DNA of 64,000 bases from Firmicutes bacterium CAG:884 (GCA_000433875.1 HF993347.1:22450-86449); one strand, 5' to 3'; shown: positions 10,932-14,993, numbered from the stretch's first letter. Notes: generated by a model not told the origin, from the letters alone. Numbers and translations are program-made.

Positions 10932-11564
10932 CTATAATTCTAGATCTTCTTGTTTCGTTCTTATTAAAGAATACATAACTTTTAAACCAATTAATACAGC
11001 AAGTACTGAAGCAAGTCCGATTGGTGATTGAACAAACAATATTGCTTTTCCTAAATAAGGAATATGGAATATTGTCTTTCCAATAGCTTGTGTTTTTTTA
11101 ATTGGTGGATCATCAGTATTATTAGCATCCCCTCTTGTTGTATAAGTTGTTTCCGTCTCATCAACAATTCTATGAGTTACTAAAATGCCACCTTCTCTAT
11201 AAGTTAAAATATCTTTTATTTTGTAATCCTTTTGAGCGTGAATAACAATAACTTCTCCTGTTTTAATAGTTGGCTCCATACTTCCACTAAGTACAATTAA
11301 AGCACTATAACCACCAACCATTGGTACATCAACTTTTAAAATCATTTTAACAATGATTGCATACCAACAAGCTATAATTACAATAATAGTGAAAATAGAA
11401 ACCATTACATCTCTAACTTTTTGTAAAGTTGTTTTTTTTGCCTTTGGAGTCTCCTTAATTTCTTCTTTAAAAAGTCTTTCTAATTTTTCATCTCTATCAG
11501 TATTATCAATAACAGGCTCTAATTGTTGTGTCCTAGATAATCTACTTTTTCCCATACTACTCAC
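10932..11564 (-). CDS. sipW: Signal peptidase I, SipW-type (archaeal-like S26B)
   Basis: Catalytic boxes SGSMEPT, THRIV and GDAN. N- and C-terminal TM. Adjacent to TasA-like cargo genes. Confidence 0.8.
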   Translation of the reverse strand: MSSMGKSRLSRTQQLEPVIDNTDRDEKLERLFKEEIKETPKAKKTTLQKVRDVMVSIFTIIVIIACWYAIIVKMILKVDVPMVGGYSALIVLSGSMEPTIKTGEVIVIHAQKDYKIKDILTYREGGILVTHRIVDETETTYTTRGDANNTDDPPIKKTQAIGKTIFHIPYLGKAILFVQSPIGLASVLAVLIGLKVMYSLIRTKQEDLEL

Positions 11565-13617
11565 CCTTTGCTGTTACATTTATTGTGATTGTATAAGTTG
11601 CAGCATCAAGTTCACCAATTGAAGTATCATTATCGCTATCTTTCCAATACCATTCAAGTACATAATTATCTGTTTTACCTGAAGGTAAATTCATTTCATT
11701 AAACTTGATTTCACTCGCTTTTTTCCATCCAGTAATATACAATCCATTTCTTTTAACTCTATATAACAAATTAATATTATAAACATTATCTTCAGCATAA
11801 GAAATATTATATCTTATAACTTTTTTAGTTGTATTTTTAACAGAATATGAATATTCACCATAAGATCTTGGTGCGATTATTTGCATTTTATCATCACCGC
11901 TAATGCAATTCTTCGTACAAACACCTTGATTATTATAGCAATTTATTTCGCATTTTCCATCATTATTTATATCAATATTTTTTTCTGGCCAGCCATCATC
12001 ATCAATGTCACAGTTCATTGTACAAACACCATTATTATTTGTTTGATTCATTTTATTTTCATCAGGTTTTTCATCACCATCTTTATCAACATTAAAATGA
12101 GGTTCCAAATCTTTATTATAATCAATATTTATATCCGGTTTACCATCACCATTAGTATCACAGTTAACATTACATTTTCCGTCACCATCGGTATCAACAT
12201 TTAAATCCGGTTTACCATCCTTATCAGTATCACAATTAAGTTTACATTTTCCATCTGATGATATACAGTTATAATCACAAATATCATCATCATTCCAGTC
12301 AATATTAACATTAGGCCAGCCATCACCATCGGTATCACAGTTAAGGTCACACTTTCCGTCTTTATCAATATCACGATCTTTAGTATTTTTAATTGTACCA
12401 TTTTCTATAACATTAAAGTGTGGTGTTTTATCTCCATCAAAATCAATATTACGATCTGGTTTACCATCACCATCAATATCACAGTTTAAATTACATCTAC
12501 CATCATTATCAGTATCTATATTGATATTTGGTTTGCCATCTTTATCAGTATCACAATTTAAATTACATTTACCATCTCTATCAGTATCGCAATTCAAATC
12601 ACATTTGCCATCTTTATCAGTATCACAGTTAAGGTCACACTTTCCATCACCATCGGTATCACAATTAAGTTCGCACCTTTGTTGTCTATCGTAACAATTA
12701 TACTCACACTTTCCATCATCATTTATATCGACATTCTTATCAGGCCAGCCATCACCATCGTTATCACAATTCATTTTACAAGTACCATTAGTATCTTTTT
12801 GATCTTTAGGGTTCCGATTAGGTTCACCATTATCATCATCAACATTAAAGTGTGGTGTTCTATCCCCATCATAATCAATTTTTGTATCCGGTTTACCATC
12901 ACCATCAGAATCACAGTTAAGATCACACTTACCATCATTATCTATATCAACATTAGTATCAGGCCAGCCATCACCATCAATATCACAGTTTTTTATACAT
13001 TTTCCGTTTCCATCAACTTGATTAGTCTTGTTATTTTCACCAACTTGATCTTTATCATCATCTACATTATAATGAGGCTTTTTATCACCTTTCCAGTCAA
13101 TATTATAATCAGGAATACCATCTCCATTGGTATCACAATTTATATCACAAATACCATCATTATCTAAATCAATATTAATATCATAATAAATATCACTATA
13201 ACTACCTTTTTTACCAGAATTTTCAAATATTTTAATATTCTGACCAATTTCCCACTTTTTGCCATCACCTTCAATAACAAATAGATTCTTATTTTTATCT
13301 TTTCTTATAATAAAATCAAACCAATTATGTTCAAGGCCATAAAATATTAAGCCAATTAAACCGCCAAGTAAAATTAAACCAAAGAAAATCCATAAAATAA
13401 TTGGTTTTTTCTTTTTATAAATAGCAGTTACAACTAAATCTTTTTTAACATTTGTAAAGTCTACATCCCATTTAGAAAACTTATAACCATCATGTTCTAA
13501 AGGTTCCGGTGCCGTAGCACTACCACCTTCATAAACCGTTTCCCTTTTTATTACTTCATCAGTTACCTCGTCTTTAAAAGTGACTATAAACTCTTTTAAC
13601 TCAATAACTTCATCCAT
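11557..13617 (-). CDS. Large membrane-anchored protein with ~12 thrombospondin type-3-like Ca2+-binding repeats and a TasA-like C-terminal domain
   Basis: 686 aa. N-terminal signal anchor (WIFFGLILLGGLIGLIFYGL). Tandem modules NCDxDGDGxPDxNIDxDGDxxPHFNVDDD (DxDxDG Ca-binding loops). C-terminus YVLEWYWKDSDND…ITINV resembles the C-termini of the two neighbouring TasA-like proteins. Confidence 0.7.
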   Translation of the reverse strand: MDEVIELKEFIVTFKDEVTDEVIKRETVYEGGSATAPEPLEHDGYKFSKWDVDFTNVKKDLVVTAIYKKKKPIILWIFFGLILLGGLIGLIFYGLEHNWFDFIIRKDKNKNLFVIEGDGKKWEIGQNIKIFENSGKKGSYSDIYYDINIDLDNDGICDINCDTNGDGIPDYNIDWKGDKKPHYNVDDDKDQVGENNKTNQVDGNGKCIKNCDIDGDGWPDTNVDIDNDGKCDLNCDSDGDGKPDTKIDYDGDRTPHFNVDDDNGEPNRNPKDQKDTNGTCKMNCDNDGDGWPDKNVDINDDGKCEYNCYDRQQRCELNCDTDGDGKCDLNCDTDKDGKCDLNCDTDRDGKCNLNCDTDKDGKPNINIDTDNDGRCNLNCDIDGDGKPDRNIDFDGDKTPHFNVIENGTIKNTKDRDIDKDGKCDLNCDTDGDGWPNVNIDWNDDDICDYNCISSDGKCKLNCDTDKDGKPDLNVDTDGDGKCNVNCDTNGDGKPDINIDYNKDLEPHFNVDKDGDEKPDENKMNQTNNNGVCTMNCDIDDDGWPEKNIDINNDGKCEINCYNNQGVCTKNCISGDDKMQIIAPRSYGEYSYSVKNTTKKVIRYNISYAEDNVYNINLLYRVKRNGLYITGWKKASEIKFNEMNLPSGKTDNYVLEWYWKDSDNDTSIGELDAATYTITINVTAKGE
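11880..13200. repeat. Intragenic tandem repeat region (~110-120 nt units encoding the DxDxDG modules)
   Basis: Recurring gatggtgatggctggcctga… / acagttaaggtcacactttcc… units. These produce spurious Ile-rich + strand ORFs (11881-12204, 12679-13167). Confidence 0.6.
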
Positions 13618-13704
13618 TAAATATCACTCCTTACAATTTAGTCCTCATTAAAAAGCACCTATTAAAGTACTCTTTAATGAGGATTAAACCTCATCGACAC
13701 AATT

Positions 13705-14397
13705 TTATTCACCAGGGTTAACACTAGGATTAACACCAGGGTTAACTTGTTTAACAACAACTTTGAAATCAACTTTGATTTCTTGACCAGCTATTTTATT
13801 GTCAACGCTTTGTACAACACCACTTTCATCAGTATAAGTAACATCTGATCCTACCCATCTCCAATAAATAGTTTTTGAATATGTACCATTTTTAGCTGCA
13901 ACTGAACCATCATTAATATCGTAAGAAGTTAATTCAGTATGAGCAGTTGATTCATTTATAGCAATTTCTGAAGTAAATGCAGCATCTTTATAAAATCTAA
14001 TATTATTTTCAGATTGATTTAATGCTGTAAAATTCTCACCTTTACCAACACGAGCATTGTAGAAATCAACATAAACAGTAGCAGCAACATCACTCTTGTT
14101 ACCAACAATAACATCAAATGATCCACTTGATCCAGGAGCTATATCAGATTTACTAATACTTAAAGTCTTATTTGCTTGTGCAACTTCATCAGTATAATTA
14201 TCAGCACCAAATGCAACTGACCAAGAAGTAACTAAACCTTTATGACCTGCACTATTGATTGTTGAACTGAAACCTGCAGCGTAAATTGCAGCACCAAGTC
14301 CACAAACAGCAAATATAGCGCATATAACTGCTAAAACTTTCATTTGTCTTTTCTTCATATCTTTCATAATTTTTCTTTCCTTCCTATTATTTAACAT
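13705..14397 (-). CDS. Secreted TasA/camelysin-like (SipW-cognate) protein
   Basis: Signal peptide ending GLGAAIYAAGFSST (compare SipW-cognate VGGGTFAYFSD). IAPGSSGSFDV resembles TasA LKPGDKLTKDF. C-terminal YWRW motif shared with its paralog. Confidence 0.45.
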   Translation of the reverse strand: MLNNRKERKIMKDMKKRQMKVLAVICAIFAVCGLGAAIYAAGFSSTINSAGHKGLVTSWSVAFGADNYTDEVAQANKTLSISKSDIAPGSSGSFDVIVGNKSDVAATVYVDFYNARVGKGENFTALNQSENNIRFYKDAAFTSEIAINESTAHTELTSYDINDGSVAAKNGTYSKTIYWRWVGSDVTYTDESGVVQSVDNKIAGQEIKVDFKVVVKQVNPGVNPSVNPGE

Positions 14398-14453
14398 TTA
14401 AATATTTAAATATATGTAAAGATTTAATTGTGTCTCCATTAAATCTTAACACC

Positions 14454-14993
14454 TTAAATTACTTGAGAACCAATAACATTAATATTAAATGACATTGTTT
14501 TATCTTGATAATCATTATCATCTATTCCATTATAATCCCATTTCCAATAAACAGTAACCGTTTTTACCATATTATCACCTTGGTATATAATTCCATTAAG
14601 TTGCGTTTTTTCTAAATCAACTTCTGTCGTATAATTCTCATCTAAATAAAACTTTAAACTTACTGGTTTCCCCTTCATATTACTGAATGTTATCTTATAA
14701 TTAACATCCACATCTGTACTAGAAGCATCAAGCTTAATATCAAATGAGCCATAAGAACCAGGCGCTAATTTACCATTATTTACATTATTAGCATTCTTTG
14801 CTAAATCAATTGAAAATGTATCTTTGGAATTATTAACTGTAAAATTCCAATTCGCTATCGCCCCACTCGTTCTACCTCTAGGACTAGACTTATAGAGTGA
14901 GTAAGAAGCACCGCCGATTCCAACAAGCGAAAGAATAATACCAAGTAAGACAAATAAAACAACTTTTTTTTCCTTCATATTCTCTCCTCTCAC
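14454..14993 (-). CDS. Secreted TasA/camelysin-like (SipW-cognate) protein, paralog
   Basis: Signal peptide …LVGIGGASYSLYKSS. LAPGSYGSFDIKL. C-terminal TVYWKWDYNG…FNINV. Confidence 0.45.
   Translation of the reverse strand: MRGENMKEKKVVLFVLLGIILSLVGIGGASYSLYKSSPRGRTSGAIANWNFTVNNSKDTFSIDLAKNANNVNNGKLAPGSYGSFDIKLDASSTDVDVNYKITFSNMKGKPVSLKFYLDENYTTEVDLEKTQLNGIIYQGDNMVKTVTVYWKWDYNGIDDNDYQDKTMSFNINVIGSQVI

Follow-up and report, generated by a model that had tools for sequence, protein, structure and literature searches.

A SipW operon of an uncultured gut Firmicute that may encode a donor-strand fibre with a repeat-stalk base

In a 64,000 nucleotide (nt) stretch of DNA from Firmicutes bacterium CAG:884 (GCA_000433875.1 HF993347.1:22450-86449), referred to here as the window and the source of all coordinates, four co-directional genes on the (-) strand encode two small secreted proteins, one large protein and a signal peptidase. 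They are named, in gene order, p4, p3, p2 and sipW. The host is an uncultured human-gut member of the Bacillota, and the G+C content of the window is ~27%. We propose that the operon produces a SipW-dependent extracellular fibre assembled by strand donation, with p4 and p3 as subunits and p2 as a strand-accepting stalk base, a reading for which we consider the chances to be about even. It is built on the homology of the C-terminal domain of p2 to the core of p4 and p3, on the features of a large family to which the two small proteins belong, and on the recurrence elsewhere of p2-like proteins beside SipW and subunit genes.

The C-terminal domain of p2 (amino acids (aa) 576-686, encoded at 11560..11892 on the (-) strand) includes the motifs APRSYGEY, EWYWKD and TITINV. 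An earlier, sequence-only reading of this DNA had proposed that the three proteins share a C-terminal domain, and this holds for the whole domain and for profile comparisons but not for pairwise comparison of the ends. Smith-Waterman alignment of the last 60 aa of p2 with those of p4 and p3, the check that this reading had suggested, gave scores not above shuffles (205/2000 and 445/2000), and BLASTP of p2 against either protein was not significant. However, comparison of the whole p4 core with aa 576-686 of p2 gave a z value of 4.0 (6/2000 shuffles), and when a diverse profile of the p3/p4 family was compared with an alignment of the p2 C-terminal domain using hhalign the probability was 85-90% and E was 1.4e-6 to 5.8e-6 over ~100 columns, the aligned span running from APGS..GSF / APRSYGEY via YWKW / EWYWK to the last strand. 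None of 200 column shuffles came up to that value (z 12.8), and the reversed control gave nothing. A hidden Markov model (HMM) of the p2 domain also matched a 191 aa family member from an Erysipelotrichaceae metagenome-assembled genome (MAG) at 2.7e-4. The HMMER profile of the family misses the p2 domain at E<=0.01, and a word-index search with the domain returned six fragments only, all from the same clade. Nonetheless, the homology between the p2 C-terminal domain and the subunit core is real. It is confined to family columns 77-189, and the signal peptide and proposed donor segment of the subunits have no counterpart in p2. The AlphaFold2 (AF2) model of the domain is a seven-strand sandwich (predicted local distance difference test (pLDDT) 78.6, predicted template modelling score (pTM) 0.71) with strands collinear with those of p4.

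The two small proteins have the same layout. In p4 (14454..14978, (-) strand, 174 aa) a signal peptide of approximately aa 1-27 ending GGASYS is followed by AIANWNF, APGSYGSFD and VYWKW, and in p3 (13705..14367, (-) strand, 220 aa, beginning MKDMKK) a signal peptide ending AAIYA is followed by LVTSWSV, APGSSGSFD and IYWRW. The APGSxGSFD motifs had been picked out earlier and are present. BLASTP of p3 against p4 gave 4e-12, hhalign of their respective family alignments gave 99.1% and E 5.4e-19 over the full length, and p3 matched the family HMM at E 5e-29. As judged from these alignments p3 and p4 are paralogues, as the sequence-only reading had it. An exhaustive profile search found 2,574 representative clusters (50% identity) at E<=1e-3, and 772 at E<=1e-10. 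Approximately two-thirds of the best 150 matches are 170-260 aa long and about one-third are 270-3,100 aa, the subunit-like domain of the longer ones lying at or near the N-terminal end. One long member has a GDSL lipase fused to it, and GLUG or M26-like regions are present in others (L021:2406-4415; P0075, P0079, P0080 and further long matches); the fibre may display such proteins as enzymes or adhesins. In Clostridia and Erysipelotrichaceae MAGs, more distant family loci include two or three paralogues each, with SipW nearby in three (L018, L020, L021) and a weaker match (E 1e-4) in a fourth (L015). Searches of plasmids by tblastn with p4 and with a central family member found nothing.

The label TasA-like, and with it membership of Peptidase_M73, had been applied to p3 and p4 but is not supported by profile searches. 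Neither protein has any Pfam match, Peptidase_M73 (PF12389) included (E<=1), or any NCBIfam match, and none of 74 diverse family relatives matches Peptidase_M73 at E<=0.01, whereas TasA itself, used as the positive control, does so at 2.4e-37. No Pfam or NCBIfam model covers the subunit family. When the family was compared by hhalign with an alignment of TasA and eight Bacillus plasmid TasA/CalY homologues, the probability was only 31% with signal peptides included and was driven by the signal region; with the signal peptides removed the score (12.3) was indistinguishable from the shuffle mean (11.9, z 0.2). Comparison with TasA alone matched only the signal peptide. The M73/TasA similarity on which the sequence-only reading had staked its first test is thus absent at the sequence level.

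What TasA and the family have in common, on these sequences, is how the signal peptide ends, and the earlier claim that the two small proteins carry SipW-type signal ends finds support at family level. Of 149 family representatives, 65 carry the motif [ST][YWF][AS]x[YF] at about residue 28, where 2.8 were expected by shuffling; the corresponding residues are TWAAF in TasA, SYSLY in p4 and IYAAG in p3. A segment of the form x[VIL][AST]xWx[FVIL], AIANWNF in p4, is found just after this motif in 120 of the 149 and is proposed as the obvious candidate for a donor strand.

The AF2 model of p4, built from a 32-sequence alignment, is a beta-sandwich (pLDDT 72.6) in which the sandwich is confident and the ~25 residues past the signal peptide have low confidence. 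A Foldseek search of the PDB with this model found nothing at E<=1e-3, the best matches being to PapE and FimG (2e-3 to 4e-3), the archaeal bundling pilin AbpA (9.7e-3) and the TasA fibre (3.9e-2). The nearest solved folds are the donor-strand pilins CsuA/B and FimG and the pilin domains of PapG, FimH and FimA. The fold evidence thus favours, though not decisively, a pilin-type immunoglobulin (Ig)-like subunit with a detachable N-terminal strand.

The remainder of p2 (11557..13617, (-) strand, 686 aa) consists of an N-terminal domain, a single transmembrane (TM) helix, a short juxtamembrane segment and a long stalk. The N-terminal domain (aa 1-70, 13408..13617, (-) strand) resembles one Flg_new (Listeria-Bacteroides) repeat, though its Pfam score falls under the cut-off (E 9.2e-5, 22.9 bits against 27), and it is strongly conserved in all p2 orthologues. 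The sole TM helix (aa 72-96, 13330..13404, (-) strand; hydropathy segment aa 70-97) is preceded by KKKK and, because of this, p2 is predicted by the positive-inside rule to lie N-in, C-out, which would place aa 1-70 in the cytoplasm. The Flg_new domain is normally extracellular, and the Flg_new-like unit of p2 is on the predicted cytoplasmic side of the TM helix.

The stalk (aa 146-575, 11893..13182, (-) strand; isoelectric point 4.1, 25% Asp+Glu) is made up of ~31 twelve-residue units with the consensus N-[C/I/V]-D-x-[DN]-x-[DN]-G-x-[C/P]-x-x, forming five super-repeats closed by '...D[YF]xGDxxPHFNV' linkers. The figure of ~12 DxDxDG repeats given earlier is an undercount, as there are 16 strict DxDxDG motifs and 20 of the form Dx[DN]x[DN]G. 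The DNA has a 36 nt period with 67-79% identity. All 34 cysteines fall in 17 strict CxxxC pairs at unit junctions, and P and I/V are found where the pair is absent. In eight p2 orthologues both positions of a pair were Cys in 81 cases, the first alone in none and the second alone in one, and this paired occupancy is the signature of a local disulfide or metal pair.

The repeats had been described as thrombospondin (TSP) type 3, and TSP type 3 repeats and other DxDxDG loops (EF-hand, Excalibur, FG-GAP) are, like the stalk, tandem aspartate-rich loops with paired cysteines. However, Pfam TSP_3 (PF02412) matched neither the whole of p2 (E<=1) nor the isolated repeats (E<=10), FG-GAP and EF-hand gave E 0.3 or worse with p2 or the isolated repeats, and no other Pfam model was significant. 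The stalk also has no NCBIfam match and no related chain in the PDB at E<=1, solved thrombospondin and COMP chains included. Hence, the TSP type 3 designation is a motif analogy, confined to the generic DxDxDG motif, and not a family assignment, and the stalk differs from those repeats in its strict 12-residue period and in the CxxxC pair at each unit junction.

Proteins of this design are not confined to the window. Metagenome contigs were scanned for the 15-residue motif NCDxDxDGxCDxNCD, which identified 76 loci, many of them labelled human gut, and 68 of these include stalk open reading frames (ORFs). The complete stalk ORFs are 367-963 aa and include a short charged N-terminal tail, one TM helix, the stalk, typically with 10-50 Dx[DN]x[DN]G units and up to 94 Cys, and a C-terminal domain of ~120 aa with the motifs 'I.PGW[ST]G..F.[IL].N ... 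NQD[IV]D.GK.F'. In 75 distinct stalk proteins other than p2, a period of 12 dominates (1,145 spacings) and the coupling of the cysteines is absolute in one direction (both positions Cys 1,134, first position alone 0). When 22 independent stalk tails were compared with the p2 C-terminal domain and with the subunit family the values were 91.5%, E 8.5e-7 and 79.6%, E 1.5e-5, respectively. In 22 of the 68 loci the stalk gene adjoins SipW and/or family genes on the same strand, usually in the order stalk-SipW or stalk-stalk-subunit-subunit; many of the loci without such neighbours are too short for the neighbourhood to be judged. With a TM helix, 12-residue repeats and a subunit-like C-terminal domain, and with SipW and subunit genes adjoining, p2 belongs to this stalk-anchor class and is unusual in it only in its Flg_new-like N-terminal domain, which is absent from the other stalk proteins. 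The recurrent architecture indicates that p2 is one member of a module covered by none of the libraries searched. At seven loci (L035, L049, L062, L063, L064, L076, L090) two consecutive stalk genes (e.g. 748 aa and 557 aa) lie upstream of two or three subunit genes, which suggests paired or alternative bases.

The product of sipW (10932..11555, (-) strand, 207 aa) scores 90.6 bits (8.9e-26) against TIGR02228, the model for signal peptidase I of the endoplasmic reticulum (ER)/archaeal type, for which the cut-off is 51.85. It includes two TM segments in a hydropathy scan and the catalytic motifs SGSMEPT, THRIV and GDAN, which had been recognized earlier. Although its score against the Bacillus SipW equivalog NF046067 falls short (79.8 vs 190), its sequence is that of a bona fide ER/archaeal-type signal peptidase. 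The SipW homologues that adjoin stalk genes elsewhere are 260-333 aa long, as against 207 aa here (L044:3007-3912, L059:900-1898, L087:380-1306, L031:5605-6390, L102:3532-4338), and their extra region has no Pfam match. In AbpX loci, signal peptidases fused to accessory modules have been reported (10.64898/2026.01.04.697558).

All four ORFs exist where the sequence-only reading placed them, but better starts were chosen for p4 and p3. The start of p4 was set at MKEKK because all of its homologues (27 of 27 clusters) begin there and a ribosome-binding site (RBS), GAGAGGAG, lies upstream. The sipW ATG is 1 nt past the p2 stop and is preceded by the RBS AAGGGTGAG; p2 and sipW are translationally coupled. 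Upstream of p4, by 31 nt, is a promoter-like site, TTGACA-17-TAAAAT (15009..15037, (-) strand), which matches 11 of 12 consensus positions and was the top of the scan. The -35 and -10 elements, an upstream AAAAGAATAA and the GAGAGGAG RBS are kept in seven orthologous loci while the flanks diverge, and the conserved promoter appears from its sequence to be near-consensus and of the sigma-A type. A terminator scan found none within the operon or between sipW and yabP, and hairpins in the p4-p3 and p3-p2 gaps were not significant (z -1.7), so that no attenuator is claimed.

The four-gene operon is syntenic in at least eight related gut-metagenome loci, and the order p4-p3-p2-sipW-yabP-yabQ-divIC recurs in seven loci of metagenome or MAG origin (L001, L003, L005, L008-L011) in which p4 is 54-82% identical. 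Because the same order recurs, the genes are taken to be real and conserved. One of these loci (L008, CAYLJU010000007.1), with a complete Firmicute-type operon and sporulation neighbours, bears the label 'uncultured Muribaculaceae bacterium', probably because of an error in binning or labelling.

In the mechanism that we favour, p4 and p3 would be exported and cut by SipW past the [ST]-[YWF]-[AS]-like signal end, exposing AIANWNF in p4 and LVTSWSV in p3. The next subunit, whose Ig-like sandwich would be incomplete, would then take up the exposed N-terminal segment as a beta-strand. The cell-proximal base would be p2, held in the membrane by its cytoplasmic 70 aa domain and one TM helix, and its ~31 candidate calcium-binding Dx[DN]x[DN]G loops with local CxxxC staples would form a rigid acidic stalk that could span the wall. 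At the outer end of the stalk, the C-terminal domain of p2 would accept the strand of the first subunit and, as it has no donor segment of its own, could only accept one. Polymerisation, strand exchange, calcium binding, the disulfides, the topology and the retention of p2 uncleaved are all parts of this scheme that we infer.

A broader version, in which the operon represents a widespread and undescribed fibre system of gut Firmicutes, with a large family of SipW-processed, donor-strand pilin-like subunits covered by no Pfam or NCBIfam model and a new class of base, a calcium-loaded, CxxxC-stapled, wall-spanning 12-residue-repeat rod of a new kind that is only ever strand-accepting, is offered tentatively, as it is somewhat doubtful that all of its parts are correct. 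In that version, because the base ends in a pilin domain able only to accept a strand, the start of the fibre and its tethering would run in reverse of the TapA mechanism, and calcium may serve as a switch, either of assembly or mechanical.

Several results weigh against a donor-strand fibre with p2 as its base. The AF2 model of the p2 domain is a closed, seemingly self-contained seven-strand sandwich and thus does not demonstrate an open groove, and a fold search with it returned generic sandwiches only (lambda gpJ, GOLD, haemagglutinin, FlhE). Outside the signal peptide nothing in sequence links the subunits to TasA/CalY, PDB sequence searches with p3, p4 and the family profile gave no meaningful match, the exact signal motif is missing from p3, and TIGR04088, the NCBIfam model for the SipW-cognate signal, matches neither p3 nor p4 and only one of the 74 family relatives. 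The organism is an anaerobe, making extracellular disulfides uncertain. In addition, several stalk proteins from other loci include SipW-type motifs right after the TM helix (e.g. GSASFSVYNY and GATYSF), so that members of the class may be cleaved and released. If p2 were itself a SipW substrate cut past its TM helix, it could serve at the strand-bearing fibre end as a secreted cap, a spacer or a cross-linker dependent on calcium, rather than as a membrane anchor. The weak match of the family HMM to the post-TM region of stalk proteins (E ~3e-3), the location of stalk genes directly upstream of sipW in at least eight loci and the precedent of TapA, which also has a long N-terminal region and is a SipW substrate (PMC10151520, PMC9245690), are in keeping with this. 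However, the end of the p2 TM helix, GLIFYGLEH, fits the SipW motif poorly, as F would be at -3, and a conserved, folded 70 aa domain ahead of the helix is hard to explain as a mere leader; we consider release of p2 unlikely.

The closed p2 model, the lack of demonstrable homology between p3/p4 and any proven fibre-former, the weakness of the fold matches, which include many non-pilin Ig-like and FN3 domains, and the fusion of some family members to enzymes such as GDSL lipase would also be expected if p3 and p4 were monomeric secreted or surface Ig-like binding proteins that use SipW, with p2 an independent calcium-binding wall or adhesin protein whose domain is common to them by descent only. 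This explanation we judge to be quite unlikely. A role at the spore surface, one of the possibilities raised by the sequence-only reading, would make the system an appendage or coat-associated layer produced in sporulation rather than a vegetative or biofilm fibre. The operon is surrounded by sporulation genes (GerQ, spoVG, YabG and SpoIID), and yabP-yabQ-divIC follows it immediately in the same orientation, with no terminator found between; the p2 domain has a weak Foldseek match to Ena2A; and TasA, which was reportedly first described as spore-associated, is named 'Spore coat-associated protein N' in the PDB. Nevertheless, the invariant promoter upstream of p4 is, as far as its sequence tells, near-consensus sigma-A type, distant loci of the subunit family do not adjoin sporulation genes, and a membrane anchor fits the cell surface better than the spore surface. 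A spore-surface role is not favoured and seems improbable.

Apart from the repeat count and the family labels, what the sequence-only reading observed is right in essence, and its interpretation holds in part. It drew an analogy with the tapA-sipW-tasA operon, and this was upheld, with SipW above the TIGR02228 cut-off and a large protein in the position of TapA. The operon logic is supported as analogous to that of tapA-sipW-tasA and closer still to that of sipW-bsaA-bsaB-bsaC(RSD). In Clostridium perfringens the latter is a biofilm-matrix operon that directs formation of SipW-dependent polymers, and its genes include, besides that of the polymerising BsaA, those of BsaB and of a large accessory protein (PMC7395162, PMC11580942). 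Both loci encode a SipW of their own, a pair of small, beta-rich secreted paralogues whose relationship to TasA is only remote, and a single large accessory protein. The likeness rests on operon composition, p4/p3 being set beside BsaA/BsaB by description. Here, unlike in the Bsa operon, sipW is last and no two-component regulator is adjacent. Whereas BsaC has a vWA domain, a Pfam scan found none in p2, in which a TM helix anchors a stalk of Cys/Asp repeats and the C-terminal domain is subunit-like.

The Bacillus subtilis tapA-sipW-tasA operon (PMC9674648, PMC10151520) resembles the operon examined here in its SipW-type peptidase, in the accessory gene that abuts sipW and in the TasA signal-peptide end, GGGTWA|AF, which is like that of the p4/p3 family; donation of an N-terminal strand in the fibre would be a further likeness. 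The subunits differ from TasA in failing Peptidase_M73 and in the absence of profile similarity between mature regions. TapA has a complete Ig fold and donates its N-terminal strand, and tapA and sipW are coupled (PMC10151520). The earlier description of the large protein as TapA-like can be retained for its position, coupled to sipW, which is all that p2 and TapA have in common. The large protein does have the subunit fold, but its design is not that of TapA, as this fold is strand-less and at the C terminus and is accompanied by a TM helix and a long stalk, and the TapA model TIGR04087 does not match it. In logic p2 would be the reverse of TapA.

Genes for minor subunits, tip proteins and anchors are common in TasA-superfamily loci (10.64898/2026.01.04.697558, PMC12337348). 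As in the AbpX, Tafi and AbpB loci, a single locus here would combine major and minor subunits with an anchor and a signal peptidase of its own. The described bacterial anchors are of the SLH or LPXTG type, whereas p2 has an N-terminal TM helix and a stalk of 12-residue candidate calcium loops. Calcium controls AbpX assembly (10.64898/2026.01.04.697558, PMC12337348, PMC9245690). The AbpX calcium sites are at the strand/groove interface of the subunit, while the candidate sites here are in the stalk. The strand-accepting logic proposed for p2 also resembles, by analogy only, that of the FimH and PapG pilin domains, though there is no chaperone, usher or outer membrane as in chaperone-usher pili and the p2 module would be cell-proximal rather than at the tip.

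TasA-like donor-strand fibres are emerging as a cross-domain solution to the building of biofilm scaffolds, and next to nothing is known of them in uncultured human-gut Firmicutes. If the proposal is correct, a family of >2,500 sequence clusters without a Pfam or NCBIfam model becomes readable as fibre subunits, the recurrent 400-960 aa Cys/Asp repeat proteins gain a role as fibre bases, and the TapA model of fibre initiation and attachment in Gram-positive bacteria acquires a testable alternative. In addition, the calcium-loop/CxxxC repeat of 12 residues may prove to be a new structural motif, one relevant to protein design and to the response of gut bacteria to calcium.

Type IV pilus genes are required for secretion of BsaC in C. 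perfringens (PMC11580942). In the window, three adjacent small ORFs with prepilin-type N-termini (KGFTLIELL, NGFTLVEF and KGFAISTM) lie 2.6 kb downstream of sipW (7048..8350, (-) strand); of these, the first scores above the Pfam N_methyl cut-off and the second narrowly misses it. In six distant loci the gene after the subunit cluster encodes a pilin-like N-terminus (..KG[IV]TL[IV]xLVxxIIxLLIL) without the Glu at position 5 (L012:12183-12959, L013:10476-11240, L014:10513-11274, L015:10523-11272, L017:10401-11630, L019:4092-5383), and the two products tested, those of L012 and L017, do not match Pfam N_methyl. These fibre loci may be recurrently linked to pseudopilin-like proteins. Elsewhere in the window, a GrpE homologue (517..1173, (-) strand) carries an N-terminal tail of ~60 aa made up almost entirely of Cys, Glu, Lys and Asp (CKCSPECECGCNEGKECTCEEENCKCCEGKECSCDECNCDDCECEECSCED), which gives this co-chaperone a metallothionein-type appearance.

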